DNA of 54,995 nucleotides from a virus (taxonomy: Duplodnaviria > Caudoviricetes). The DNA is taken from IMG/VR virus record IMGVR_UViG_3300027418_000012, positions 1-54,995 of that record; one strand, given 5' to 3'. Both the position numbers and the translations under genes were made by a program. The notes beneath the pieces are model-generated. The model ran no database searches. It was not told the origin of the DNA and was given only the letters and a program-made list of their open reading frames with translations. Position 1 is the first letter of the stretch. Each line of letters begins with the position of its first letter. Shown piece after piece: positions 1 to 49,427 of the stretch.

Positions 1-34
1 TGCCTACCCAATCAGACTACCCCACCATAATTAT

Positions 35-53
35 TGACGGGGCTACCCCGTCA
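35..53. promoter_or_regulatory. Perfect GC-rich hairpin TGACGGGG-CTA-CCCCGTCA upstream of first ORF
   Basis: 8-bp perfect inverted repeat with 3-nt loop, 22 nt before ATG at 76. Function is inferred only. Confidence 0.4.
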
Positions 54-75
54 TCACTCGTAAACTCGTTATATT

Positions 76-390
76 ATGGCACAATTATCAATTGCAATGC
101 TTACAGAGCAAGCATTGGGTCAGTTAGACAAACTGACTTTCAACCTTGCCAACGCTGAATGCAGAGCATCAGCTAATGGCAATGTAGGTTTTAAAGTTAA
201 AACCGACCAAGGGAAGGTTATCACCTTCTGGACTTCTACGGCTGACGCAACCGTAAAAGCCCTTGATGACGCTGGAAACTTCCAGGTCATTCCAGGCACC
301 GGTTTGGCGGAAGAGAAACTTCCTGACGGTACCACTGCTTACGGGTTGATTGATAAATCATCAACAGGCCGTAACAGTTTCTGGAAGTAA
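76..390 (+). CDS. Hypothetical phage protein (104 aa), probably early
   Basis: Clean ORF, AT-rich leader, followed by a strong terminator. Confidence 0.75.
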   Translation: MAQLSIAMLTEQALGQLDKLTFNLANAECRASANGNVGFKVKTDQGKVITFWTSTADATVKALDDAGNFQVIPGTGLAEEKLPDGTTAYGLIDKSSTGRNSFWK

Positions 391-400
391 CCTTCCAGAT

Positions 401-432
401 GAGAGAAGACTATATGTCTTCTCTCTTTTTTT
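401..432 (+). terminator. Rho-independent terminator
   Basis: GAGAGAAGAC-TATAT-GTCTTCTCTC followed by T7. Confidence 0.85.
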
Positions 433-611
433 CTGTTACGTAACGTTTAACACGCAGTAGTTTGTAGACAATCTTATAGATTGCATAGTACTTTTCTCTC
501 ATAACTAATTGATTGTGAGAGAGTTAGTGTGTTACAGAAAGACAGGTGCGTATTTCTTAATGTATTTTCTATGCCATATATTCCAATTTTGCAGCGGATA
601 ATATGGCTATA

Positions 612-772
612 ACTAGCAGGTGTTAAGGCTAGTGCGTTCTATAAATACAGTTCTAATCTAAGTAAGACAGATAGACAAGCAAATGATATACCACATACAC
701 TGTGTTATATAGCTTGGAGTTCCTGATTGTACAAACGTAGATAGATTAGTATTGTATATATAGAGGTCACCT
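612..772 (+). ncRNA. Pistol-like self-cleaving ribozyme variant (no P1/AAA linker, extended P3)
   Basis: ACUAGC(612-617)/GCUAGU(628-633); P2 GGUG(619-622)/CACC(768-771); UUAAG(623-627); GCG(634-636); P3 UUCUAUA(637-643)/UAUAGAG(759-765); GU(766-767) at the cleavage position. Confidence 0.6.
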
Positions 773-786
773 AAAAATCTATTATT

Positions 787-978
787 ATGATTATTTTACT
801 TGGTTCTAATTACGACGGGGTTACAGACGTATACCATTTTTACTATCACAACAGTGAAACTAATTGGTATTATGAGATGGCCTGTAGAAACTCATTTGGT
901 ACAGCTGATATGAATTCACGTACTAAAGATATATCAATGGAAGAATTTAAACAACTAGCAGGTGATAGACTTGCTTAG
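787..978 (+). CDS. Hypothetical protein (63 aa)
   Basis: ORF with A-rich leader, directly downstream of the pistol-like element. Confidence 0.6.
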   Translation: MIILLGSNYDGVTDVYHFYYHNSETNWYYEMACRNSFGTADMNSRTKDISMEEFKQLAGDRLA

Positions 979-1099
979 TGTTTACATTTAGCTAAAGTAA
1001 AAACACTACACATCTACAGGGACTATCCTTGATTATCCCCTGGTGTAGACCTTTAAGCAGTAAATCAAGCTATGTTGCTTATTGGACTTTTTCTTATTA

Positions 1100-1163
1100 A
1101 CTCCTCTGAGGGAGTATAAACCGTGTTAGGCTCAGAGCGTCCGTAGTATATCTACGGGGTCAC
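1100..1163 (+). ncRNA. Pistol self-cleaving ribozyme
   Basis: P1 ACUCC(1100-1104)/GGAGU(1111-1115); 6-bp pseudoknot UCUGAG(1105-1110)/CUCAGA(1131-1136); UAAA linker; P2 GUG(1123-1125)/CAC(1161-1163); UUAGG; GCG(1137-1139); P3 UCCGUAG/CUACGGG; G1159-U1160 cleavage site. Matches the pistol consensus order element for element. Confidence 0.88.
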
Positions 1164-1178
1164 CAAAAATCATTAAAC

Positions 1179-1400
1179 ATGAAAAACATCATTAACTACG
1201 TTTGTAGCATCTCTGCCTCTCTGTTGATACTTATCTTCTTAGAAGGACTATTAACGAGAGGTATGGCCTTTAAATTTGAATTGTACGGTATTATAGCTTG
1301 GGTAGCCCAAGTAGTAATTACCATTTTCTTCATTTCTCTTGCTATTCTAATCACTCAATCTGATTTAGAAGACAAAAAACGCAAGACTAGATCATTTTAA
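1179..1400 (+). CDS. Small membrane protein, 2 predicted TM helices (73 aa)
   Basis: Two hydrophobic stretches and a basic C-terminus. Confidence 0.7.
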   Translation: MKNIINYVCSISASLLILIFLEGLLTRGMAFKFELYGIIAWVAQVVITIFFISLAILITQSDLEDKKRKTRSF

Positions 1401-1405
1401 ACACT

Positions 1406-1490
1406 TTCAGGGAGCTCACCAGTGAGCTATAATCATAGTATAGTTTAGTTTATTATACTATGACTAGGGGTCATACATGAGCTCCCTGAA
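1406..1490. ncRNA. Structured intergenic element closed by a 13-bp perfect inverted repeat
   Basis: TTCAGGGAGCTCA(1406-1418)/TGAGCTCCCTGAA(1478-1490); inner TCATAGTATA(1433-1442)/TATACTATGA(1454-1463). Confidence 0.5.
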
Positions 1491-1524
1491 TCTATTACAT
1501 CATCATTTAATCATAATTACACTT

Positions 1525-1950
1525 ATGAAACAAGTTATCACTAGGGATATGCTTCCAAAAATAAAAGCACCCAAATTTAAAGTGGCAGGGTTTATTCTCA
1601 ATGAGTATGAGTTAAGATGCCTAATGCTTGAAACAGCAAAAAACAACATTCAAAGCGGTATTTCCGTTATTGATATGCAAAGCAATCAAAAGGCTTTTAT
1701 ACAAAAAGACGGCAGTTTAACTCAATACATTGGAGAATCATTAAAAATTAATGGCAAATTAGGCTTAGAATTACTTCAACACAGAGTAAGTAAACTTAAC
1801 GAACTAGCACAAATGTTAGATATAAGTCCTATTGAACTCCTTAAAACAGTTAATAAACTGTCTACCGTTGTAAAGTTAGAAGGACTAGAAATGATTAGCA
1901 AGTCTGTAATGGAAACAGTAGCAATTAAAAATAAGAAAAACAAAATTTAA
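1525..1950 (+). CDS. Hypothetical protein
   Basis: ORF 1477..1950. ATG at 1525 preferred because 1477 lies inside the inverted repeat. Confidence 0.65.
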   Translation: MKQVITRDMLPKIKAPKFKVAGFILNEYELRCLMLETAKNNIQSGISVIDMQSNQKAFIQKDGSLTQYIGESLKINGKLGLELLQHRVSKLNELAQMLDISPIELLKTVNKLSTVVKLEGLEMISKSVMETVAIKNKKNKI

Positions 1951-1963
1951 ATCATTTTACACC

Positions 1964-2113
1964 ATGATACGCAAAAAAAACTTAGTCTTCAGGACTTACA
2001 ACCAATTCACAGAATGGTACTTAAAAATGTCTAGAAAGTTCATTAAACTTAAACTTATATACTTAAAACTATTTAGATCAAGTACTTATATAGCTGTTAC
2101 TATCAGCTATTAA
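1964..2113 (+). CDS. Small basic hypothetical protein (49 aa), not in ORF track
   Basis: ATG 1964 to TAA 2113 (MIRKKNLVFRTYNQF...), AT-rich leader. Confidence 0.4.
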   Translation: MIRKKNLVFRTYNQFTEWYLKMSRKFIKLKLIYLKLFRSSTYIAVTISY

Positions 2114-2159
2114 TATATTCTGTAATTGTAATTAAACATTAGTTTCCCCCAAACTAAGT

Positions 2160-2405
2160 AATGACTATGAGCCATTCCCACGCCAAAAGATCACATATTG
2201 TGACTGATAGTAACATCAGATAGGAGTGTAGGGTGTTGCAGGGCTCTGGTCATTTATTAAAGTGCACAATAGATATAACAGTATGGGAATCCATCCCTAC
2301 TAACACAGCTAGCGGACTGTTATACTATGTGCATAATCCATCTATTCCATAAAAACATTATGTAGATGGTGACCCGGAGACTGAAATATGTCAATGGGTG
2401 CCATT
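2160..2405 (+). ncRNA. Cluster of three consecutive structured RNA elements
   Basis: AATGAC/GTCATT plus GAGCC/GGCTC multi-stem (2160-2254); TGCAC-ATAG-TATAACAGT/ACTGTTATA-CTAT-GTGCA (2263-2333); hairpins in 2338-2405. Confidence 0.5.
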
Positions 2406-2447
2406 TATTAAAACCCTTTCATTTTATCACCAATCAATTCATAAAAC

Positions 2448-3032
2448 ATGAAAACTTTCTCAATTAGTGCTCCATGGGACACTAAATCAATTGTCGTTAG
2501 AGTAGAACTAGGTAAATACGCTAACGGTAGAACTAGAATCAATCTTATAGATGATTCTGACAACGAGCCATATTGTACGGCTACAACTAACCTTCCTGAT
2601 GTCTTATTACTAGACAATGAAGTCTTTATCAAAGACTATTCAGAGAACGAAGGCGTATTAGACTTCTTAACTACGAACAACATCGTAATTGCTACAAACA
2701 AATGGGCAACCAGTGGTTTTGTAGATGTACAGGTGTGCACTCTCAATCCTGAATCAGAATGGGGAATGATTCCTAATCTTTATTCAGATGAAGAACCAGA
2801 GTATGACAGTGCTGGCTTTTCTGTATCTGATAGAACTGTAAATCAAGAATTTACAGCTACATTAGAACAAGATGAGCAAAGATATGATGATAAGCATAAC
2901 ACAATGCCACCTCCACCACTTGAAATAGATATGGTGACAGGTAAATGCATGTGGCTTATCAAAGATTATAAAATATGGGCTAATACATATGAAGAAGCTG
3001 TAAAGCATCTTGATGTGATTGAATCATTTTAA
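2448..3032 (+). CDS. Hypothetical phage protein (acidic, 194 aa)
   Basis: Long ORF. The N-terminal PYCTATTNL...VFIKDYSENEG segment resembles widespread phage hypotheticals (DUF4313-like, from memory). Confidence 0.75.
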   Translation: MKTFSISAPWDTKSIVVRVELGKYANGRTRINLIDDSDNEPYCTATTNLPDVLLLDNEVFIKDYSENEGVLDFLTTNNIVIATNKWATSGFVDVQVCTLNPESEWGMIPNLYSDEEPEYDSAGFSVSDRTVNQEFTATLEQDEQRYDDKHNTMPPPPLEIDMVTGKCMWLIKDYKIWANTYEEAVKHLDVIESF

Positions 3033-3041
3033 ATCATTAAC

Positions 3042-3269
3042 ATGAAAAAAGCATTAGAAGTATTATTTGGTATTAGAGAGCCTAAAAAGCTCTCTAAACC
3101 AATTGAACTATCATTTTCTACATTAATTCCTATTAGTAGGCCAGGTATGGGAGAATGGTTCAAAAGATATAACGTGGGCATATTGTCTGATAGACAATCA
3201 ACTAATGTCCAAATTAGAATGGGTAACATCATTAAGTATGTTGATCTACATTCTATAAGAAATTTTTAA
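3042..3269 (+). CDS. Hypothetical protein (75 aa)
   Basis: Co-oriented ORF with typical leader. Confidence 0.65.
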   Translation: MKKALEVLFGIREPKKLSKPIELSFSTLIPISRPGMGEWFKRYNVGILSDRQSTNVQIRMGNIIKYVDLHSIRNF

Positions 3270-3308
3270 TAGGACTTGGACCGGTTCTACTTCACTGAAC
3301 TAGCAGTT

Positions 3309-3343
3309 TGCAGGCTAATCTTTAAAACCTGCAATTTTTATTT
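3309..3343 (+). terminator. Possible terminator hairpin
   Basis: TTGCAGG...CCTGCAA followed by TTTTTATTT. Confidence 0.5.
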
Positions 3344-3381
3344 TAGGTAACAATAATTAATTAATTCATAATCAATCATTT

Positions 3382-4146
3382 ATGAAAAAGCAATCAGATG
3401 CTTCAATTCTAAAGACAATAATGCCTTTAGAAATCTTACGTAAAGACTCCAATAAGAGTCTTGGTATTTTAAACATGGTCAATAGACCAATTGTACCCTC
3501 ACATGTCACCTCTGTAGCTACATCAATTGAGAAAATAGGTCTTATACGACCTGTTGTTGTAGCTAATCTAGACTTAAAAGAGTTTAAAGGAGAATATATT
3601 ATAGACGGACAGCATTTGTTTAATGCTTGTATGAGACTAAACAAACATGTTCCTTATGTAAAAATAGACATAAACTCGGAAGAAGAACTAATAGACATAT
3701 TAGCCAGTCTTAACAATTCATCTAAAGCATGGACATTAAAAGACTATGTACAATCATGGGCATACATACGCTCAGATTTTAGAAAATTAGCTAAATATCG
3801 TCAAACATATGATTTAGAATTAGTAGCAATTGCAGGTATTCTGCATAAGTCTCCTAATATATTTCATTGTATGAACTTAATTAAGAAAGGTGAGCTGGTA
3901 ATTAAAAACGAAGCGGTAGCTGTCAAGGTGATGGAGTATACTAATGATCTATTAGGTGTATTCTACAAGTTTGATAGAAAAAACGCTAGAAAGTTAGTTA
4001 ATGCATATGTACAGTATGTAACAAACACTCATGATTCTTATAATCATAAAAAATTCTTAAATAACATTAACAAGCAGAAAAGTAAATTAGAACTGTTATT
4101 GGCTAATCCCGATGATGTAACTGATTTCTTTAATAAAATGTCTTAA
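3382..4146 (+). CDS. ParB/Sulfiredoxin-like N-terminal domain protein
   Basis: NRP...GLIRPVVV...YIIDGQH motif typical of ParB-like domains, followed by LNNSSKAW. Confidence 0.7.
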   Translation: MKKQSDASILKTIMPLEILRKDSNKSLGILNMVNRPIVPSHVTSVATSIEKIGLIRPVVVANLDLKEFKGEYIIDGQHLFNACMRLNKHVPYVKIDINSEEELIDILASLNNSSKAWTLKDYVQSWAYIRSDFRKLAKYRQTYDLELVAIAGILHKSPNIFHCMNLIKKGELVIKNEAVAVKVMEYTNDLLGVFYKFDRKNARKLVNAYVQYVTNTHDSYNHKKFLNNINKQKSKLELLLANPDDVTDFFNKMS

Positions 4147-4155
4147 TGTTATTAA

Positions 4156-4350
4156 ACTCGGTGAGACTAGCATGTGCTAGTATGGGTACTCTCTTACCCG
4201 AACCATAGATGCAAGACTGATCAACTATGAGATGCTGCAGATGAAAACTGGACGTTCTTAACTGAACTAGTAAGATGGCTGCCGTGATGGGGGCATACCA
4301 AAGAGACTACTGCATTAGCTAACGCTTCATAAGCCAGCACCGTTTTGAGT
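4156..4350 (+). ncRNA. Large multi-stem structured RNA (~195 nt) with possible pseudoknot
   Basis: Closing ACTC-GGTG/CACC-GAGT; hairpins ACTAGCA/TGCTAGT and GGGTA/TACCC; nested TATGA/TCATA, TGCAG/CTGCA, TCTTA/TAAGA, TGCC/GGCA; loop TCTCT(4190-4194) complementary to AGAGA(4302-4306). Confidence 0.55.
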
Positions 4351-4457
4351 AGTATTGACTGAACCTGACAGCACAGCTGTTCAGATGTAGGGAACTTCAA
4401 CACAATCAGTACGTTAAGCTGATTATTTTTATTAATCATTCATTAAATATAAAAACC

Positions 4458-4853
4458 ATGTCAAAAAAATTGACACCAACTATTGCCAAAGCATTGGCAG
4501 AGAAAGTACGAGCTGAACTAGTAGTTCGTCACAAAGGAAGCACTGAAACCATTACCAAAAAGGTTGAGTCTTCTAAACTCTATAAAGAGTTAATACTAAC
4601 CATCAAGAAAATTGATGAGCTTGACGAGAAAAAACAAGTTCTTAGAAAAGAAATAGAGGAGAATTTATCTACAAAAATGTATGATGTAGGTGTATCAGCT
4701 TATCACTCTACACCACATATATCTGTCAACTATCGTTCTGCATTCTCAGTGGAGAGTATTAAAGATATGATCTTGATAGAAGACTATATGTCTGAAGACG
4801 CAAAAACTCCAGAAGAGTTTGTCAAATTTATTGCTGATAAATTATCTAAATAG
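4458..4853 (+). CDS. Hypothetical protein (coiled-coil, 131 aa)
   Basis: ORF with A-rich leader. Confidence 0.75.
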   Translation: MSKKLTPTIAKALAEKVRAELVVRHKGSTETITKKVESSKLYKELILTIKKIDELDEKKQVLRKEIEENLSTKMYDVGVSAYHSTPHISVNYRSAFSVESIKDMILIEDYMSEDAKTPEEFVKFIADKLSK

Positions 4854-4860
4854 CAATTAT

Positions 4861-5037
4861 ATGACAATTGAACAACTGAATAGGCTGCTAAATGCAGCTT
4901 GTGAAATCATTACAGCATTAGAAGAGCATGCTGATGAATCATTAAAAGAAGATATTGATGCTTTCTTTAATGAAATTAAATATTCTGATGATATAAAAGA
5001 CGAAATTGATCATTATGAATTGGGTGGTGAAGCATAA
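4861..5037 (+). CDS. Small acidic hypothetical protein
   Basis: ATG at 4861 just after the previous stop. Confidence 0.6.
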   Translation: MTIEQLNRLLNAACEIITALEEHADESLKEDIDAFFNEIKYSDDIKDEIDHYELGGEA

Positions 5038-5068
5038 GTAATTAATAACAATTTAAAAACAATTTACC

Positions 5069-5416
5069 GTGAGTAAAAAATTAATCAAAGGTGTACAAAC
5101 AGCATTTGTTGCTGACATCAAAGCAGGAGTAAAAACAGAAGTATTAGTAAGTAAATATGGCTTTCCTAATAGAGGCAAGTTATATCAAACTATGTACTAT
5201 TTAAGAAAAACAGGTGTATTACCTAAAAGAAAGCATAAAACAGCTAAGAAAGTTGTTAAGCCTGTAATGACACAAACTAAAACTGTAGACAATACAGCGT
5301 CTATAAACAATTTTAGAACTGTGTTTTTCCAAGACTTTTCTGTGCAGATTCATAAGAAAGCTAATTCAAGAGTGGTATTGGATGAGAACAACAACGTCCA
5401 TATTTTAAACAACTAA
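5069..5416 (+). CDS. Basic hypothetical protein, possible HTH DNA-binding
   Basis: GTG start, helical N-terminal half, Lys-rich linker. Confidence 0.65.
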   Translation: MSKKLIKGVQTAFVADIKAGVKTEVLVSKYGFPNRGKLYQTMYYLRKTGVLPKRKHKTAKKVVKPVMTQTKTVDNTASINNFRTVFFQDFSVQIHKKANSRVVLDENNNVHILNN

Positions 5417-5427
5417 AAGTTAACCGT

Positions 5428-6030
5428 ATGTTATTTAAACAACGAGGATTTAACCACGAAGAAGAGATCTTTCATAGAGCTCTTAGCATAAGTGATGACG
5501 TTAAAAACATAGTAAGAGAGAAAATATTCTTCTCATGTTTTTGTAACGGATTACAAGCTATGGACTTGTTTGAAGACATAAATGACGCTCCAAGATCATT
5601 GTCTACAGTGACAGGTGATCTAGAAAAGTGTTTAGAAATGACTGATGGTCATGAAGAATATGAATATGCTTTACTGTGTTTCACTATGTATCAGAGACTT
5701 ACTAAACCTATTTTAGCAGATTATAAAATGCAGAATAGTACAGATCCTGAAGATAGAGAAGCTAGATTAAAACATAGAATTATAGAAGCTATTATGGAAT
5801 TAAAGCGTGAAGCTGATAGAGCTGAGTCTGATGAAGACAGTGATTATCCTGATGAAGAAAAGGGACCATTTGCTGTTAATCAAGAAAGAATGCTGACACG
5901 TTTAACATACATAAAAAAATCTAAGTATAACTTCAATACATATATGAATTTGATGAGAGGTGTTAAAAGCACTAAATCAGATTTTGATATAGATGGAATG
6001 TTAGGAAATATAATGAAAGGTGATGATTAG
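5428..6030 (+). CDS. Hypothetical protein (200 aa)
   Basis: Long ORF followed by terminator. Confidence 0.75.
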   Translation: MLFKQRGFNHEEEIFHRALSISDDVKNIVREKIFFSCFCNGLQAMDLFEDINDAPRSLSTVTGDLEKCLEMTDGHEEYEYALLCFTMYQRLTKPILADYKMQNSTDPEDREARLKHRIIEAIMELKREADRAESDEDSDYPDEEKGPFAVNQERMLTRLTYIKKSKYNFNTYMNLMRGVKSTKSDFDIDGMLGNIMKGDD

Positions 6031-6044
6031 TAAATAAGTAAAAG

Positions 6045-6071
6045 AGGGGGGCAGCAATGCCTCCTTTTTTT
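6045..6071 (+). terminator. Rho-independent terminator
   Basis: GGGGGGCA-GCAA-TGCCTCC followed by a T-run. Confidence 0.8.
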
Positions 6072-6073
6072 AT

Positions 6074-6081
6074 TACATTTG
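6074..6081 (+). promoter_or_regulatory. Bacteroidota sigma70 -7 element (TAnnTTTG)
   Basis: TACATTTG right after a terminator and 26 nt before ATG 6108. Confidence 0.6.
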
Positions 6082-6107
6082 CTTCCCTTCATTTACAAAA
6101 CACACAC

Positions 6108-6398
6108 ATGTCACAACTTATCAACTATAGATTAAAAAATGGCTTTGGACAAGTTAGTAACAATATCATGAGAGATCCTGAAGTTTCTTTGCAAGAAAAG
6201 GCAGTTTATTCTTATCTTTGTACTTACTCAGATGCCATTACTAATCAGACATATGTTGGTATAGCTAAAATGGCAGATGAATGTGGAGTGTCTCAATCAA
6301 CTATTAAAAGAATATTAAATAGTCTTGAGAGTAAAAGAATAATAGTAAGAGTAACTCGTGGTAGTGGATTAACATCGTTTACAAACATATTAAAATAA
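6108..6398 (+). CDS. Winged helix-turn-helix protein (HTH_36 / replication-initiator N-terminal-like)
   Basis: LSxxEKAVYSYL...IAKMADECGVSQSTIKRILNSLESKRII pattern. Start moved to ATG 6108. Confidence 0.75.
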   Translation: MSQLINYRLKNGFGQVSNNIMRDPEVSLQEKAVYSYLCTYSDAITNQTYVGIAKMADECGVSQSTIKRILNSLESKRIIVRVTRGSGLTSFTNILK

Positions 6399-6411
6399 AA
6401 GCTTTAATAGC

Positions 6412-7004
6412 AGCGGGCCAGGCTCAGATAAGCAGGTATTAGTACGCTATTTATATGTATAACTCCTGAGCCCCAGCTAACTTATAATTGTAATCACACT
6501 GAGCGTCTCCTCATTATAGCTGTGATGTATGTTGTTATTGAGTAATGACCAACAACAATTAAACTTATTAACTGATTATAGAAGACTCGTAAGACCCTGC
6601 GGGCTAGGTCAGCTATAATGGTTAAAAATAAAGATCTGATCCTAAGTGCCTATCATTAGTTCTTGTCTCGTTCGTCAAACAGTTCCGTCATTTAGTAGTA
6701 CGACATGTGTATTGAGCTCCGTCAAACGAAAGATGGTCATACCTAGTAGCATTACGTAATAGTACAAAAGTAGTCCTTGAGATAGATCTTTTTTAAAATA
6801 TTACCAAGTTGAAGTCAGTGGCAATAAAACCGGCCACGTGAACTGTCCTCTTAGTATTGCACTGTAGAGAGCCACGATAAAACCGGATACTTGGGAGCAG
6901 TTGATGAAATGCACGTCTGGAAGCTGTTAAACATAAGAACCTGAACAGATAAACCAGAATAATACATACAGTAAGAATTCCAGGTCTGACTGTAAAGTAA
7001 TCAA
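6412..7004 (+). ncRNA. Array of ~6 self-contained structured RNA domains upstream of tmRNA
   Basis: About 600 nt with no ORF. Consecutive closing stems at 6412-6478, 6486-6560, 6568-6625, 6630-6791, 6804-6894 and 6901-7004, mostly separated by short A/U-rich spacers. Confidence 0.6.
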
Positions 7005-7010
7005 TGATTT

Positions 7011-7053
7011 AGAAGTGGTGGAGTTTTTAATAGATCTCCACTACTTCTTTTTT
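7011..7053 (+). terminator. Long hairpin/terminator immediately before tmRNA
   Basis: AGAAGTGGTGGAG/CTCCACTACTTCT followed by a T-run. Confidence 0.7.
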
Positions 7054-7058
7054 ATAAT

Positions 7059-7482
7059 GGGGCCGTATTGGTTTTGACAGATATGAGGAAGGTAGTATCA
7101 CATGTAAGCCTTGGAACAGGTAAACAAGTTCTAAACAATAACCGTAAAGAGTCAATCTGAGCGTGTTGCAGAAGGTGAAGCTATCTTAGCTTCTATCTTT
7201 GCTTCTGAGTATGCATTAGCAGCTTAGGCAACTGGGTGGTAACAACCTGGAAACAGAAAGTTACAAATGTTTTCTCTGTTATGTCAAAACAGAGTGGTGG
7301 ATGGTAAGCAGAACCTGCGTACCCCAATTTACTGATCAAGATGAAGCTTCGGACTGTAGTAAATACGCAAGCTTGAAACATAGGAAACGCTACAGCAAAT
7401 TCCTATATCAAATAGATCTAAGCATGTAAGAACGGTATTATTGTCACGTATTTGGACAGGGGTTCAACTCCCCTCGGCTCCA
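7059..7482 (+). ncRNA. ssrA: tmRNA (transfer-messenger RNA)
   Basis: 5' GGGGCCG...TTTTGAC; 3' GACAGGGGTTCAACTCCCCTCGGCTCCA T-arm and acceptor with G3-U70 Ala identity pair; tag ORF 7144-7227 VKSQSERVAEGEAILASIFASEYALAA*; CCA not encoded. Confidence 0.95.
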
Positions 7483-7545
7483 CACATTAAAAACAACATT
7501 ATGAGAGGTAGTAAATATCCTTATTATAAACAAAAAAACAACCAT

Positions 7546-7722
7546 ATGCAAGATGTAGTATTCAAAGTGTATCAAGTATTTTATACTAAACCTGCTAAGA
7601 AAAGAAGAAAAGCATTAAGTATTATGCTTAAATGGTGCTTTAAAGAATACATTAAGACTTTTAAAAAGGAAGAAATTCCATTAAATGTAATGACAAATGA
7701 GATCGTTAAGCTTGATGATTAA
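7546..7722 (+). CDS. Small basic hypothetical protein
   Basis: The ORF-track start (7441) overlaps the tmRNA. ATG 7546 has a typical A-rich leader (7501 is also possible). Confidence 0.5.
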   Translation: MQDVVFKVYQVFYTKPAKKRRKALSIMLKWCFKEYIKTFKKEEIPLNVMTNEIVKLDD

Positions 7723-7827
7723 ATACTTTATGCTTTTTACTATAGCATATATAGCCTTGTGGATACTGGCCATATTACAATTAATAAATGAAGCTTTTGT
7801 TTCTTTAATAAATAAATTAAAAAATAT

Positions 7828-8046
7828 ATGGACCAAGAACTAGACCCAATAAATCATGGGCACTATATAGAGTTGATAGACAGAGTACATGTAATGGCTT
7901 CTAACATAGAAGATCATTTAATTAATCACCGCTTGACAGCTGATGTAGCAGAATTAAAAGATCATTTTGAGAAAGCTCAAGAGTCTCTTATGAATGCATA
8001 CCAACTAATAGGTAATATAATGCCAGATAATGACAGAGTATACTAA
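7828..8046 (+). CDS. Hypothetical protein (72 aa)
   Basis: ORF in co-oriented gene run. Confidence 0.7.
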   Translation: MDQELDPINHGHYIELIDRVHVMASNIEDHLINHRLTADVAELKDHFEKAQESLMNAYQLIGNIMPDNDRVY

Positions 8047-8593
8047 ACTACCCATACCTAAAGATACGGCATGGGATACAGCAAGATTTAAATGGGGTAG
8101 ATATATCCATTGGCGTATTAGATACTTCTTTCAAGGAGTATGGAATATAATACGATGGATGCCAACTATCTTTCATGATAAAGATTGGGATGATTATTAC
8201 ATTACTAAGATGCTACAAAAGAAACTTGAGTTTCATAGAGCTCATCTAGTATCAGAGAATAGACATGTAAATATAGATAGAGATAACTACTGGATGACAG
8301 TGGTACTTAATCTTTTAGAACGTAAACATACAGAATACTATCAAATGGAACGTTATGACTATATGGTACATGGCCCAGAACTATTTGATGATTTAATATC
8401 AGACACTCTTGATGAGTATATAGCTAAATATGGTAGTGCTAAACGTGCAGCTATTAAAAAGTATGCTAAAAATAACCCACGTCTTAATGATAAGGAATCT
8501 ATATCATTTTATATGTGTACTATACGTCAACAGAAAGCTGATGATCTAATATTTGAGATTCTTAAAAGACATTCTGCCGAATGGTGGGATTAA
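8030..8593 (+). CDS. Conserved-type phage hypothetical protein (187 aa)
   Basis: Trp-rich, with DKDWD and C-terminal WWD motifs. Confidence 0.75.
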   Translation: MTEYTKLPIPKDTAWDTARFKWGRYIHWRIRYFFQGVWNIIRWMPTIFHDKDWDDYYITKMLQKKLEFHRAHLVSENRHVNIDRDNYWMTVVLNLLERKHTEYYQMERYDYMVHGPELFDDLISDTLDEYIAKYGSAKRAAIKKYAKNNPRLNDKESISFYMCTIRQQKADDLIFEILKRHSAEWWD

Positions 8594-8604
8594 ATTTATA
8601 AATT

Positions 8605-9156
8605 ATGACAGAAGAACAATATATAGAACTAAAAGATAAATACCTTACAAATATTAAAAGGTATATGATACAAGAAGGAGGACTATTCTCTCACATCAGC
8701 GTATTTGCTGAAAAGTTAGGATATGATGAAGATGATGATCAAGAAACTAAAAATGCTATTATTCATATTCCTCTACCTACAAAGATTGCTAACTCAGATG
8801 AAGGCAAAGAGTACTTTGTTACCAAAATGATACCTGATATAGCTAGTTCATTAAAAGAAGGTTTTACAACAACAGGTGTAGCCTGGGCTTCCGAAGCTTG
8901 GTTAAGATCTTCTCATATAGATGATAAACAACCAGAGAACTGGAAAGATATGCCTATAAAAAAAGAGGTGTTAATGGTATCTATGGAGTCTGCATTTGGT
9001 AATGAAACCAGTGTCTACGAAATAGTACGTAATGGAATGAAGGTAACCGAGGAAGGGTTATCTGACACAATTGAATTAATTAAGGACGAAGAGCTTAGTG
9101 GTGAAAACCTCAATTTTGAAGGTAGATTCACCGGCCTTTATAAAAAATTTATATAA
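8605..9156 (+). CDS. Hypothetical protein (183 aa)
   Basis: ORF with SEAW...KKEVL motif. Confidence 0.75.
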   Translation: MTEEQYIELKDKYLTNIKRYMIQEGGLFSHISVFAEKLGYDEDDDQETKNAIIHIPLPTKIANSDEGKEYFVTKMIPDIASSLKEGFTTTGVAWASEAWLRSSHIDDKQPENWKDMPIKKEVLMVSMESAFGNETSVYEIVRNGMKVTEEGLSDTIELIKDEELSGENLNFEGRFTGLYKKFI

Positions 9157-44492: not shown

Positions 44493-47400
44493 TTAGTATC
44501 CTGCTTGTAGTTTAATATCCCAGTCTTTTCTAAAGTCATCATCATATGTAGCCATAAGTAACATTGCTTCTTTAGCTACAGGTACCATTCTATTAAAGTA
44601 TTTTAAAGGTTTTGCAGACTTAATTAACTCTTCATTTCCTGTAACTTGACCATAAGTCTCCTTACTTAAAGCTCCCATAAATCTATACATATCTTCAGCT
44701 AAACCAACTGCCGGAACAGGAGATTTAATTAACTTAGTAAATTCAGTAGGTAAGTAGTAAAATGCAAACTCATTATAATATTTTCTAAGGGCTCTAGCTA
44801 AGTATAACTTCATGCCCTTATTCTTTCTATCTTCATCATCTCCTGAAACAACTGACATAACAGCAACTGCAAAAGATGTAAGAACCATAACTTCTAGCAT
44901 CATAGATCTTAGATTACCTCTGTACATGTCTATGAACTCAGCCTCAGATATATTAAATTCCTGTCCTTTTTCAAGAGCATCACGTTTTAAGTTTTCAAAC
45001 TTTTCTCTACCCATCTTTACAACATCATCACCAAAACCAGTGATAATACCTTTAAGTAATGTAGGGATGTTCTTAAAAAAGATCTTACTAAAGAATACGT
45101 TAAACTTACCGTAGGTCCAAGTTTGTAATTCATCATCATACTGAAGACCTCCTAAACGCTCCTCAACCATCTCTGGTATCCAGTTTCTAAACTGCATTAA
45201 AGCAGAACCGTACACTGTGCTTCTAATACTATTGATATCATCTCTAGTTGAGTTACCTAGTATCTTTTTACTAACTCCTTTTATCTTACTTCTAAAGTCA
45301 GAAAAAGTATCAGACTCTTTATCAATCCCCGGAATAGAAAACTGACCATCTTTATCTAACTCACCTTTAACTAGTATACTTTCTTTATCCTGTAACTCAC
45401 CCACTTCTTTATCTATCTTAGCCATCAGAGCTTTTCTCTCTGAAGAAGATAAAGAGTAAAAGTTTTCATTATAGTTATACTTATCTTTTACAAACTTTTG
45501 TATACTAACAATCTGACCATCTACCACCATATGATCCATCATTATAGCAATTGCTACAGGGTATTGAACTCCTTTATCTGCTGCTCTTTGCATAGCATAG
45601 AAGTTATCTTTCTTTAATACAGCATTAGTAGCTGATAAAGATAGATCGTCTATCAATAGACTTTTATTACCTTCTTGTAAAATATTGAGGTATACTAAAG
45701 CTGCACGAGCTTTCTTACTCCCTCCTACAGCATGTATAGCTCTAGCCCAAGTTTTATTAGTAAAGAATATACCTTTCTGAGCAACGAACAAAGCATTACC
45801 TGTACCACCTACAAACTGAGCTGACGCTGAAATAGGGTTTAATGCTAATGTCTTTAAACTAAAGAAAGATATAGCTGACTGTACTGTCTTTAATAATGAG
45901 TATTCTTTGTTAATATTAAGTAATGGAATATTCACCTTAATCTTAGTGTCACTTCCTTTACCTTGAAGACTATCATAAATGTAATAATTAATAAAACCTT
46001 CTAATAAGTTAGCATTTCTATCATTATTTTTAACAGATTTAACCTTGCCATTTTCTAATACTATATTATTAAACGCATCAGTTACTAAACTCTTTTTACT
46101 TCTCTCAGCTTCCAATAACATAAGTGATTGATCTTCAATAGAATGCATAGCTTCATAGTTATACATATGAGCTGACCATACACCATACACTTTAAACAAG
46201 TCTCTTGACTTTTTAGAATAATCTGTCACACCAGTCTTTTCATCTGTTACTCCCATGTCTTTAGTAAAGTATACAGGAATACGATTAATAATACTACCAT
46301 CGGTTGGATCAACTTCTGGAGTGTATGCTGTACCTGAATCCACTTCTAAGCTTTCAAAGAATCCTTTAGTACTAAACAATCCTTTTACATCTCCAAATAC
46401 TAACTGATCTAATTTACCAGCATATGTAGAAGGTATAAACTTAGTTACATTTCTATCAATCATTCCTAGTTCTTCAGCATAGTTATTTAAAGACTGGAAG
46501 TAATCATACATCTCTTTTAACGGACCGTTAACGTAATTACCTGCAGCATCTTTTCTATTTAACTCTGCCCACTTTTCAGTGTACCATTGAGACTTAGGTT
46601 TAAGAAAGTTGTTATCTTTATTAATTAAAGCCTTAGTGTTAATTTTACCATCTTCTCTTATCACTTGGAAGTTACTCTTCCATTCAGCAATCTTTTTAGC
46701 AACCAGTGCTGCATTTTCTTGTTCATCTAAAGCATACTGTATAGATTTAAAAAACTCAATCTGTCTTTTTTCTGACGCAGCAAACTTAACATCATCAAAT
46801 TCTACGTTATCTACAAACCACTCAAAGTTACCATCTTCAATAGCTTTGTCTCTAGATTTATAAAACTCTGATTTATAAGTACTTACAAAGTTACCATTCC
46901 AGTTACCCTTGTCATTAATCTGAAGAATCATCTCCATAGCTTTATCAGTACTAATACCTTTTCCAGCTGCCCATTGTTTAAACTTCTTTTTAAGAGCTAG
47001 CAATTCACCAGCTGTCTTATCAAACTTAGCATCTCTTCTATTCTGAGCAATTCTTAATATCTTAGAGAAGATTCTAAAAGCCTTTTGAGGGATGTTAGAT
47101 AAAGAAGTTAACCATCCTCTTAATGTTCCCACTGCAGTCTCAGAATTAAGATAGTTAAATATACCATTGCTTTCAGCTAGTTTACTAGTTTGCTCATCAC
47201 GATAGTTTTTAATTGTATCAACTAACTTAGTAACCTTAGAAGTCATTTGTAAAAACTTTTCATTCACTTCTTTAAAGGCTGCCATCTCTTTAGCATTTCC
47301 TTTCTCTTTAACTACAGTGTAGTATTGATCACGTAAATCATATAATAGTACATTACTTTTACCAAACACCTCAAGAATCTTAATAGCTTCTTGAGTGTCT

Positions 47401-49415
47401 TTACCAGTCAGTGTTTTGTTTTCTAACATTTCACTGTACTTCTTATACTCTAATAATCCTAAGTCAACAAGTCTATTAACCTTACCCTTTAATTGTAAGT
47501 CACGAATAGCTATTCTAAGCTGACTAAGCTCCTCTCTCTTTTTATATAGCTCTTCTTTAGTATATCTAGTATTTTGAATCTTATCATAAATACCATTAAG
47601 CTGTTCTATAAGAGAATCCAATTGATCATCCCCTGTACTTTCTGTTCTAAGAACTACAGGTAATAAATAACTTTTCTCATCAGGAATTTTAGTAGGATCG
47701 GTATTACCTACTTCTATGCCTTTAATAGTTTCAATTCTTCCATCTCTAAAAGAGAAGGCTGTTCTAATAGGGATGGCACGAATCTTACCAAACTTACTAA
47801 ACCCGTATTGTAATTGTAAGATTTTACGATAGTTTTCTAACTGAATCCTATACATCTGCTCTTTATATGTCTTGATATCAGTCTGTTCTTTTCCAATCTC
47901 TTGGGACTTCCAGTCATAGATATCTACTAATCCATCTGCTTGTATTGCTAGCAAGTCAATACTACCAGCAATTTTAGTTTTCTGATCAAAGATTTTAACC
48001 TCAGTCATAAACACAGTGCTATTATCATACTGATTTAAAACTTCTTGTATATACTCATTCAATCCTTTATAGACAGCTTGATTCTTAATCTTAATATCTA
48101 TAGGTTTTTGACTAGGTCTTTTAGTACCATCCTCGTTTAACCAGCTATCAATTATATCTTTAATCTGCTCATGGATAATATCTCCATATTCAGCTTTAGC
48201 TAAGTCAATAAGCTTTTGTTTATCACTTCTTTGGTCAGATCTAAATATCTTCTTAAGCCACTTATCTACATAAAAAGATGTAACAGATCCTTTACCTTCT
48301 ACACCTTTATACCTATAAATGTGTCTCTTCTGGCCAGTTCTGTTATCAATACTGTTATCAAGATCAATGTTATCTTGATCTAATCTTAATCCTTGTACAG
48401 GATCTACTAAGTGATAATACTCTTCATCAATTAAACCTTCATCAGTTAATTGAGCAGTTTCACCATCAATGATCTGCTGAGCTGCATCCTCAAAAGGATT
48501 CTCATCAGCTTGATTAAATATAGAAGTGACATACTCCCATAATCTATTAAACCAATTAATTAGAGATCCTAATTTCTCATCAGTTTCTTCTAAAGCTTGA
48601 TTCTTAACTATATGTTCAGCTATCACTCTACCAATAGCTTCTTTTTTTATCTTATCAAAATTAATAGATCCATCTTCATTACGAAAAGCTTTTTTATTCT
48701 TATACTGATTAACTGTAGTGGTATACACCTTATACCCAGTTATCTTATTGTACATCTCTTTATATAAAGGATGTCCAGGTCCTAGCATTTCTACAAAGAA
48801 GTGAGCTGCCTCTTCAGGTAATACATCTAAAGAAGCTTTGTTTTCTACCACCTCAATAATCTTATTAAGCATGCTAGCTTTAGCTGCAGCATTAATTATA
48901 TTTCCCTCTGAATCACGTATCTCATTTACAGACTGAATAGATACACCTATTTTTTCTAAGAAACGTATAACTGCTTTATTATCAGACTCTTTAGGTTTAG
49001 CAGCCACCTGTGGTTCATTCACAGGCATTGGCTCCTCCATTTCTTCTACATCCTCTCGTTCTATAACAGGAGTCATCTCATCATTAAGTAGCTGATAGTA
49101 TGCTGATGCATCTGAATCTTTATGATACTCATTATGTAACTCTTGAAGTTCATCAAAAAACTCATCATTTATTATAGCATAGGCATTTCCTTGCCTAAAG
49201 TTCTCTCTATTACCTGTAGGATATAGTATAGGTATCTGTTTAATATCCACTGTAAATAACTTATCAGTATTTGTAACACCGTACTTATCCTTAGCTATTT
49301 TAGAATACTTATCATTATATAATCCAAATTCCATGCTGATGATTTTCATGTTATCATCAACAAGTCCTTTCTTTTTAAGATTATCAATTGTGTTCTGTCT
49401 TACGTTACAAACCAT
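44493..49415 (-). CDS. Giant virion/ejected protein (1640 aa) with PD-(D/E)XK nuclease-like domain
   Basis: G.IIH...E...AGSIDLL...IYDWKS...Y.IQL..Y motif; degenerate zincin-like EEAAH; adjacent to the RNAP gene as in crAss-like phages. Confidence 0.7.
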   Translation of the reverse strand: MVCNVRQNTIDNLKKKGLVDDNMKIISMEFGLYNDKYSKIAKDKYGVTNTDKLFTVDIKQIPILYPTGNRENFRQGNAYAIINDEFFDELQELHNEYHKDSDASAYYQLLNDEMTPVIEREDVEEMEEPMPVNEPQVAAKPKESDNKAVIRFLEKIGVSIQSVNEIRDSEGNIINAAAKASMLNKIIEVVENKASLDVLPEEAAHFFVEMLGPGHPLYKEMYNKITGYKVYTTTVNQYKNKKAFRNEDGSINFDKIKKEAIGRVIAEHIVKNQALEETDEKLGSLINWFNRLWEYVTSIFNQADENPFEDAAQQIIDGETAQLTDEGLIDEEYYHLVDPVQGLRLDQDNIDLDNSIDNRTGQKRHIYRYKGVEGKGSVTSFYVDKWLKKIFRSDQRSDKQKLIDLAKAEYGDIIHEQIKDIIDSWLNEDGTKRPSQKPIDIKIKNQAVYKGLNEYIQEVLNQYDNSTVFMTEVKIFDQKTKIAGSIDLLAIQADGLVDIYDWKSQEIGKEQTDIKTYKEQMYRIQLENYRKILQLQYGFSKFGKIRAIPIRTAFSFRDGRIETIKGIEVGNTDPTKIPDEKSYLLPVVLRTESTGDDQLDSLIEQLNGIYDKIQNTRYTKEELYKKREELSQLRIAIRDLQLKGKVNRLVDLGLLEYKKYSEMLENKTLTGKDTQEAIKILEVFGKSNVLLYDLRDQYYTVVKEKGNAKEMAAFKEVNEKFLQMTSKVTKLVDTIKNYRDEQTSKLAESNGIFNYLNSETAVGTLRGWLTSLSNIPQKAFRIFSKILRIAQNRRDAKFDKTAGELLALKKKFKQWAAGKGISTDKAMEMILQINDKGNWNGNFVSTYKSEFYKSRDKAIEDGNFEWFVDNVEFDDVKFAASEKRQIEFFKSIQYALDEQENAALVAKKIAEWKSNFQVIREDGKINTKALINKDNNFLKPKSQWYTEKWAELNRKDAAGNYVNGPLKEMYDYFQSLNNYAEELGMIDRNVTKFIPSTYAGKLDQLVFGDVKGLFSTKGFFESLEVDSGTAYTPEVDPTDGSIINRIPVYFTKDMGVTDEKTGVTDYSKKSRDLFKVYGVWSAHMYNYEAMHSIEDQSLMLLEAERSKKSLVTDAFNNIVLENGKVKSVKNNDRNANLLEGFINYYIYDSLQGKGSDTKIKVNIPLLNINKEYSLLKTVQSAISFFSLKTLALNPISASAQFVGGTGNALFVAQKGIFFTNKTWARAIHAVGGSKKARAALVYLNILQEGNKSLLIDDLSLSATNAVLKKDNFYAMQRAADKGVQYPVAIAIMMDHMVVDGQIVSIQKFVKDKYNYNENFYSLSSSERKALMAKIDKEVGELQDKESILVKGELDKDGQFSIPGIDKESDTFSDFRSKIKGVSKKILGNSTRDDINSIRSTVYGSALMQFRNWIPEMVEERLGGLQYDDELQTWTYGKFNVFFSKIFFKNIPTLLKGIITGFGDDVVKMGREKFENLKRDALEKGQEFNISEAEFIDMYRGNLRSMMLEVMVLTSFAVAVMSVVSGDDEDRKNKGMKLYLARALRKYYNEFAFYYLPTEFTKLIKSPVPAVGLAEDMYRFMGALSKETYGQVTGNEELIKSAKPLKYFNRMVPVAKEAMLLMATYDDDFRKDWDIKLQAGY

Positions 49416-49427
49416 TGTTTAAATATT

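Follow-up and report, generated by a model that had tools for sequence, protein, structure and literature searches.

The locus described here lies close to the start of a 54,995-nt IMG/VR virus record with an estimated completeness of 42% and a G+C content of 33%; this record, analysed at its full length, is referred to as the window. On the plus strand, a 63-aa ORF and a 73-aa ORF follow one another, the second preceded by a canonical pistol ribozyme and closed by a long hairpin, the first headed by a putative pistol-like element that lacks the P1 stem. The coordinates of these and of the other features discussed are collected in Table 1.

Table 1. Features of the window, and one-strand pistol arrays found in other viral records
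Feature	Position	Strand	Remarks
ORF, 104 aa	76-390	+	no family
P1-less pistol-like element (putative)	612-771	+	pseudoknot, P2, core, P3 and G/U junction in pistol order
Predicted leader of ORF 787, 20 nt	767-786	+	A/U-rich
ORF, 63 aa	787-978	+	no family match; headed by element 612-771
Spacer with two modest hairpins	979-1099	+	sequence not shared with L103 and L104; 24/118 and 37/118 positions identical
Mosaic block: pistol, leader, ORF, hairpin (~409 nt)	1097-1505	+	from alignment with L103 and L104
Canonical pistol ribozyme	1100-1164	+	Rfam RF02679, model positions 1-68 of 68
Leader on the 3' product, 19 nt	1160-1178	+	A-rich; no Shine-Dalgarno sequence
ORF, 73 aa	1179-1400	+	two predicted transmembrane helices; charged C-terminal tail
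Near-perfect hairpin, 85 nt	1406-1490	+	3' end of cassette; no U-run behind it
Non-coding spacer, 334 nt, before DUF4313-like ORF 2448	2114-2447	+	folds somewhat better than shuffles, z -2.7
tmRNA gene	7059-7485	+	Rfam 88.3 bits against a cut-off of 47; ARAGORN 7059-7483
Pistol array, 7 copies	G022:C1:25961-30279	one strand	
Pistol array, 5 copies	G004:C1:13516-15910	one strand	
Pistol array, 5 copies	G008:C1:359-2041 and 74399-75216	one strand	record has terminal repeats; copies at each end

The replication genes of the window encode a family-B-like polymerase, a primase, a DnaB-type helicase, a UDG-like protein and a ParB-like protein. Polymerases from various Proteobacteria phages (Acinetobacter, Nitrincola and Vibrio) share just 33-38% identity with that of the window, which does not support a guess that the virus is crAss-like. 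No Shine-Dalgarno sequence was seen at any of the 56 gene starts listed in the window, and the leaders at these starts are A/U-rich; the idea of a Bacteroidota host comes solely from this lack of Shine-Dalgarno sequences. Megablast of window positions 1-6000 against phage records gave no matches, and no related loci turned up in viral contigs when either the 73-aa ORF or the 194-aa DUF4313 ORF served as the query. The DNA runs that contain most of the sequence words of the window, a comparison of shared words only, are labelled as marine and freshwater metagenomes. The tag peptide given by ARAGORN for the tmRNA of the window has 27 residues and ends in ALAA. Two giant ORFs of 1640 and 1685 aa occupy 44493-54485 on the minus strand, and have almost no family match except for one weak exonuclease-like stretch.

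Around the locus itself, a terminator-like hairpin with a T-run lies at 401-425, 3' of ORF 76-390, and RNA contigs of three runs still extend to 613-642. The 5' arm of this hairpin (400-419) is one copy of a 20-nt direct repeat, 95% identical, whose other copy (4774-4793) lies inside ORF 4458-4853; apart from similar leaders, the direct repeats of window 1-9000 contained no recurring signal. Further downstream, the spacer before ORF 2448 has no Rfam match and no pistol or ribozyme core, and one RNA contig (2042-2706) spans it. ORF 2448 and ORF 1179 have similar leaders.

A preliminary description of this DNA had placed a pistol ribozyme at 1100..1178 and expected it to match the Rfam model, as it does over the full length of that model: cmscan of the whole window scored RF02679 at 47.3 bits against a gathering threshold of 34.5 (E 1.4e-5), while a separate search run gave an E-value of 3.3e-9 and matched none of 14 control genomes. 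Read from the sequence, P1 is formed by 1100-1104 paired with 1111-1115, and its loop, 1105-1110 (UCUGAG), forms the pseudoknot with 1131-1136 (CUCAGA) through six Watson-Crick pairs. An A-rich linker (1116-1122) leads to P2, in which 1123-1125 and 1161-1163 form three Watson-Crick pairs, and P3 comprises seven pairs between 1140-1146 and 1152-1158. The predicted cut lies in the two-nucleotide junction G1159/U1160 (model positions 63/64). Both this cut and the resulting 19-nt leader, U1160-C1178, before the ATG at 1179-1181 had been proposed in advance, and both can be read in the sequence and in the model alignment.

The match is not a perfect one. The fourth P2 pair of the model is a C1122/C1164 mismatch, and the linker is one base shorter than in the model, the A at model position 23 being aligned to a gap; all other upper-case consensus positions of the alignment are matched. 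Among 75 phage pistols, a set described below in which the window pistol is included, the same short-linker form occurs in seven, and the score of the window pistol is the seventh lowest. The C/C opposition in P2, the short linker and the low score suggest a rather weak member of the class. Judged on its sequence, 1100-1164 is a genuine but ordinary pistol, in a context that fits an existing hypothesis.

Downstream of the predicted cut, the stretch 1160-1210 folds with -3.2 kcal/mol, no better than shuffles, so that the leader is taken to be unstructured. The ORF behind it matches nine database clusters at 82-90% identity, all of them from metagenome or environmental assembly sources; none of the nine is credibly named, and no Pfam domain was found in the ORF. 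Its two hydrophobic stretches on the Kyte-Doolittle scale make the earlier designation as a membrane protein a fair prediction. The hairpin 1406-1490 has a folding energy of -44.6 kcal/mol (z -8.7), a stability reached by none of 200 shuffles, and Rfam returned for it only microRNA matches at chance level.

Two metagenome contigs, L103 and L104, which were obtained in a scan with the 73-aa protein, allow the borders of this arrangement to be drawn. Their ribozymes, which score 47.8 bits each with RF02679, are identical to that of the window at 61 of 68 positions, and every difference lies in P3, where three pairs are changed on both sides and are fully compensatory. Three compensatory pairs in an otherwise conserved ribozyme indicate that the pistol fold is under selection. 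Leader positions 1165-1178 are identical in both contigs (14/14), ORF 1179-1400 is identical at 219 of 222 nt in L103 and 217 of 222 in L104, and the hairpin region at 108 of 113, the hairpin 1406-1490 itself being the same in all. Identity begins at 1097, 3 nt 5' of the ribozyme, and ends near 1505; the flanks beyond are 20-40% identical in the three contigs, that is, unrelated. On this alignment, ribozyme, leader, gene and hairpin move together as one cassette of ~409 nt. Since the shared block starts just 3 nt before the ribozyme, no promoter would be inherited with it and the cassette would rely on transcription from upstream. L104 also carries ORF 76-390, and over the part aligned here, 560-613, this contig is identical to the window.

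The position of pistols relative to genes was surveyed more widely. A pistol-core sequence pattern of our own found 57 loci in viral contigs, and 50 of the 57 whole records were run through the Rfam model, giving 76 matches to RF02679, 74 of them above the cut-off; with the match in the window added and two exact duplicates removed, a set of 75 pistols resulted. By a crude ORF rule, and in 50 records which were chosen by our own pattern, are in many cases related and are not random, an ORF of at least 50 aa starts 0-60 nt past the cut in 51 of the 75 (median 29 nt among these) and 13-60 nt past it in 45, as against 1113 of 3000 random same-strand positions (37%) and 16 of 75 on the antisense strand. 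In the other 24 no ORF starts inside 60 nt. Among the 75 phage pistols the commonest layout is thus one in which only a short leader separates the cut from the start codon; the direction of the effect is clear, although its p-value is not to be read at face value. The preliminary description had asked whether related phages keep the distance from ribozyme to ATG; L103 and L104, with their identical leaders, do so, and the survey places the window within this layout. Besides the arrays of Table 1, three pistols on one strand occur in each of G048 and G030. In the arrays of G022, G004 and G008, most pistols lie directly before consecutive small ORFs, and the leaders are near-identical within an array. 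No paper on pistol-to-start-codon spacing in phages was found among main texts.

The gene before the cassette appears to be headed in a related way. The preliminary description spoke of two ribozymes in front of consecutive genes, and this holds for one Rfam pistol only: Rfam searches of 1-6000 (E<=10) and of the complete window (E<=5) revealed no second ribozyme, and the element 612-771 gave no Rfam pistol match in 1-6000 at E<=10. The second ribozyme survives in part, as a putative P1-less element with covarying pairings. Its parts stand in pistol order, and its pseudoknot strands are 612-617 and 628-633. A one-base linker (A618) leads into P2 (619-622 with 768-771), whose 5' strand is followed by the loop UUAAG (623-627), while GCGU (634-637) leads into the P3 domain. 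This domain (637-765) contains a long insertion, begins, like P3 of the model, with a U/G pair, and closes on folding (-30.7 kcal/mol, z -3.4). The predicted cut is G766/U767, and the sequence 767-817 behind it folds with -1.3 kcal/mol, no better than shuffles. Neither a P1 stem nor an A-rich linker is present. Pistol-type cores occur just twice in the non-coding DNA of the window, at 623 and at 1126. A similarity of 748-784 to the 3' part of the pistol had also been considered and was too weak on its own (best local score in the window 39 against 35 for the next best); the structural reading replaces it.

Relatives of the element were sought with three patterns. One that fixed P2 and the core and left the pseudoknot free had three matches, each with a complementary strand one base upstream, the pseudoknot strands of the elements amounting to three different sequences overall. 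The pattern TTAAGGCTAGTGCGT...GGT, in which the 3' pseudoknot strand is fixed and P2 is free, found 15 loci, four of which have the upstream strand; these represent three distinct elements, L226 and L233 being one stretch, and in each of them the P2 strands match, three kinds being represented. About 11-12 of the 15 loci look unrelated and have no upstream pseudoknot strand. The pattern GGTGTTAAG-N5-TGCGT alone matched mostly by chance: among the 80 loci screened, two (L117 and L141) have a complementary upstream strand together with a P2 3' strand within 30 nt.

When 539,011 bases were scanned with a descriptor, eight distinct P1-less elements were identified, 612-771 among them, as against none in five shuffles. 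In all eight the 5' pseudoknot strand lies one base from P2, with no stem and no linker; the elements have three pseudoknot versions, three P2 versions and a P3 of 13-174 nt, and the shortest complete one is 44 nt long. In an alignment of five short elements, 96.9% of cells are paired and seven of 13 pairs have changed on both sides, an outcome matched by none of 500 shuffles, while slid controls reached at most 0.09 against 0.508. The pairings of the P1-less elements thus appear clearly maintained. An ORF starts 18-43 nt past the predicted cut in six of the eight, and the other two have no clear ORF. Five of the six ORFs encode 56-84 aa; the sixth is open to the end of its locus and encodes at least 27 aa. 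A covariance model built from five P1-less relatives, R1, matches 612-656 of the window with 34.1 bits (E 5.3e-7) and finds one copy per P1-less record. In 43 canonical-pistol records it found no further P1-less copies, its sole match being weak and falling on a canonical pistol in G041. The Rfam model aligned locally with one short relative, L227, over model positions 24-68 only, at 26.9 bits (E 0.11) and below the cut-off.

Two further observations concern the relatives. In L141, on the minus strand, the predicted 3' product of the P1-less element starts with a small palindromic hairpin and a mini-ORF of five codons, and the likely real start lies 36 nt downstream. In L104, inspection of the alignment by eye suggested a pistol at ~860-960 that has P1, a UUUAAAC-type linker and a long P3 (~37 nt); it has no Rfam match at E<=10. 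As this stretch lies at the corresponding place, each of the three contigs would have a pistol-type element in front of the gene that precedes the membrane-protein cassette.

The element 612-771 is therefore described here as a candidate variant of the pistol, more novel than its canonical neighbour. Whether such elements self-cleave is finely balanced, and we lean slightly towards cleavage. The maintained pairings count in its favour. In the stacking order of the pistol, as given in the accessible part of Zhan et al. (2024, PMC11300833), P1, the pseudoknot and P3 are coaxial and P2 lies alongside; from this order we infer that joining the pseudoknot strand to P2 by a single base is sterically plausible. 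Against cleavage counts the substantial loss of activity caused by a P1-disrupting mutation in a canonical pistol, as stated in the available text of Harris et al. (2015, PMC4604425). Main texts yielded no paper on natural P1-less or minimal pistols.

Six metatranscriptome runs contain part of the window, and four of these, from four studies, were examined as contigs. Upstream of the pistol, RNA contigs cover 792-1087 (X16) and 992-1084 (X17); downstream of the cut they cover 1175-1411 (X15), 1180-1409 (X17) and 1186-1500 (X18). Among the RNA pieces listed from the four studies, none crosses 1159/1160 or 766/767. For X15-X17 the listed pieces account for all of the binned depth, so that 1088-1174 is uncovered in these three, while the depth arithmetic of X18 suggests a further contig from 1025 to ~1133, which would enter the ribozyme. 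There are no loose ends at the contig borders 1084/1087 and 1175/1180/1186. Positions 643-791 have no RNA cover in any of the four runs; neither this gap nor that at 1088-1174 is evidence on its own. Other RNA contigs bridge structured stretches (183-642, 1186-1500 and 2042-2706). The X16 piece starts 25 nt past the predicted cut at 767, and the three downstream pieces start 15-26 nt past 1160. At 613 and at 1500/1505 RNA contigs run on into unlike sequence, matching the mosaic junctions in the DNA. As contigs, which show neither RNA ends nor strand, these data are a weak hint of a break at both cut sites. Contigs with these same ends could also arise if upstream transcripts terminated at a hairpin that is followed 8 nt later by a U-run (~1056-1096).

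Taken together, 1100-1164 is probably a working pistol which cuts a longer RNA, insulates its gene and forms a cassette with the hairpin, the preceding gene being headed likewise by a P1-less element. A longer, polycistronic RNA starting upstream would be transcribed through the pistol, which would fold into P1, pseudoknot, P2 and P3 and cut itself between G1159 and U1160 in the cell. The upstream fragment would keep almost the entire ribozyme and end in a 2',3'-cyclic phosphate, whereas the downstream RNA would begin with a 5'-OH at U1160 and continue through the 19-nt unstructured leader to the start codon of the 73-aa membrane protein (for pistol chemistry and phage association, see the accessible sections of Harris et al., 2015, PMC4604425). 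The 85-nt hairpin would close the 3' side of the message. As the cassette of ribozyme, leader, gene and hairpin travels between phage genomes, the pistol would act as a built-in insulator, giving the gene the same short leader whatever sequence lies upstream. A constant short leader would suit the Shine-Dalgarno-less initiation at all gene starts examined, and translation or message stability may benefit. ORF 787-978 would be served in the same manner, with the putative P1-less element cutting at G766/U767 and leaving a 20-nt leader.

A broader form of this reading is put forward only tentatively, and we would not bet on it: small phage genes may be self-insulating cassettes, ribozyme cores may serve as homology patches for their exchange, and P1-less pistols down to 44 nt may be catalytic. 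A 5' pistol-type ribozyme and a 3' hairpin would then allow a message to be cut out, with a Shine-Dalgarno-less leader of ~20 nt, anywhere in a transcription unit.

The pistol could instead mainly serve the RNA upstream of it, setting or protecting the 3' end of the ORF 787-978 message with a pseudoknotted cyclic-phosphate cap, the short leader being a by-product. Cleavage does leave nearly the whole fold on the 5' fragment, for 37 of the 75 pistols a stop codon on the same strand lies no more than 25 nt upstream of the first base, and in L103 the upstream ORF ends at the first base of the ribozyme. In the window, however, the upstream stop is 121 nt from the pistol, and across the three related contigs the ribozyme accompanies the downstream gene, each contig having a different gene and spacer upstream. 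A role centred on the upstream message is therefore thought unlikely.

A transcript could also start from a promoter of its own in the upstream spacer, with the pistol trimming a monocistronic 5' leader and removing the triphosphate end. The hairpin and U-run at ~1056-1096, together with the RNA contigs that end at 1084 and 1087 in two studies, could mark termination of an upstream transcript. The same contigs, 792-1087 and 992-1084, nevertheless reach right up to the ribozyme, and the conserved block begins 3 nt before it with three unrelated flanks upstream, which leaves no inherited promoter. Motif scans located no promoter or transcript start: a Bacteroidota-type -7 motif does not occur in 400-1180 and, over the whole window, is no commoner than expected (32 against 31.7), and sigma-70-like sites, at seven against a shuffle mean of 13.7, are fewer than in shuffles. 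A local promoter for the 73-aa ORF accordingly seems improbable.

Cleavage could act as a brake, by detaching the message of a potentially toxic membrane protein from a stabilising 5' part, or conditionally, so that expression is lowered or timed. The gene product is indeed a small predicted membrane protein, the pistol matches its model weakly, and regulated cleavage is raised for phage hammerheads in the consulted part of Perreault et al. (2011, PMC3088659). Genes downstream of pistols are, however, of many kinds, RNA contigs of three studies cover ORF 1179-1400, and folding of the locus revealed no ligand-binding or alternative fold, which together make a brake a distinctly improbable explanation. 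That the ribozyme is a passenger of no benefit to the phage, selfish or decaying and between genes by chance, would accord with its low score, its mismatched P2 pair and the unknown role of most pistols (as described in the available part of Weinberg's 2019 review, PMC6765202), but is very hard to reconcile with three compensatory P3 pairs in an otherwise identical ribozyme and with the non-random placement of pistols before start codons.

Under the preferred reading of a working, insulating pistol, what is new at the locus, as far as sequence allows, is a cassette with compensatory variants, the occurrence of canonical and P1-less forms before consecutive genes, and RNA data. The locus offers a compact and directly testable case for the role of pistols, which is still described as unknown: the predicted cut lies 19 nt before a start codon, the cassette border coincides with the ribozyme, natural compensatory variants exist, and RNA is present in lake metatranscriptomes. 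Current models miss the P1-less form; its activity would therefore widen the definition of the class, P1 no longer being a fixed feature. If the 44-nt form is catalytic, it would be among the smallest natural self-cleavers, and an active P1-less form would provide a very small natural ribozyme usable as a genetic insulator.

The pistol self-cleaving ribozyme class is reportedly the subject of a 2015 paper by Weinberg et al. Several familiar systems resemble the arrangement proposed here. In the early mRNA of phage T7, intercistronic processing by RNase III cuts one long transcript into units with defined ends. RiboJ is a synthetic ribozyme insulator which removes the 5' context and makes expression independent of the upstream sequence. 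The PeSL of T4-type phages are promoter-stem-loop cassettes, and small gene cassettes with such regulatory borders shuffle between phages. The likeness is one of resemblance only: these systems use a protein nuclease, engineered parts or promoters, in contrast to a natural pistol.

Set against the pistol class itself (RF02679; Harris et al., 2015, PMC4604425, as far as the available text goes), 1100-1164 shares P1, pseudoknot, P2, P3, G/U junction, phage context and, except for the A at model position 23, the upper-case core positions, and differs by a linker one base short and one mismatched P2 pair. The element 612-771 keeps the 3' two-thirds of the fold, whereas P1 and the linker, fixed features of the published consensus, are missing. 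The pseudoknot-containing hammerhead described in the accessible portion of Zhan et al. (2024, PMC11300833) has the same helix connectivity as the pistol, so that the fold tolerates different cores; the core sequences of that hammerhead are absent from 612-771.

The concept that phage ribozymes cut transcripts into gene-length mRNAs is not new, and is already in print for hammerheads. In the part of Perreault et al. (2011, PMC3088659) that was available, clustered phage hammerheads are proposed to process long transcripts to gene-length mRNAs, and prophage hammerheads cleaved transcripts of ~2 kb in vitro. As with pistols, several such hammerheads can lie on the same strand of a prophage, to either side of a single gene or a short block of genes; they belong to another ribozyme class. 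A 2019 review (PMC6765202), in its accessible text, extends the transcript-processing idea to hammerhead and twister and calls the functions unresolved. According to the portion available, a 2026 paper (PMC13725137) connects ribozymes in the 5' UTRs of RNA viruses with the initiation of translation. It shares with the present locus a self-cleaving ribozyme directly before an ORF and a link to a translatable 5' end; it differs in that its motifs (hammerhead, deltavirus and twister) come from RNA viruses of eukaryotes, and it leaves DNA phages aside. A further parallel is the HHphage hammerhead of haloviruses HF1 and HF2. In the same available part of Perreault et al. (PMC3088659), it is placed 13 nt ahead of an early gene's ATG or other start codon, and the 5' end of the transcript maps no more than 3 nt from the cut. 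This follows the same logic as the 19-nt leader, in an archaeal virus and with a hammerhead for which the transcript end was mapped experimentally. Pistols cut at their own 3' edge, and the downstream RNA would therefore retain only 5 nt of the ribozyme.
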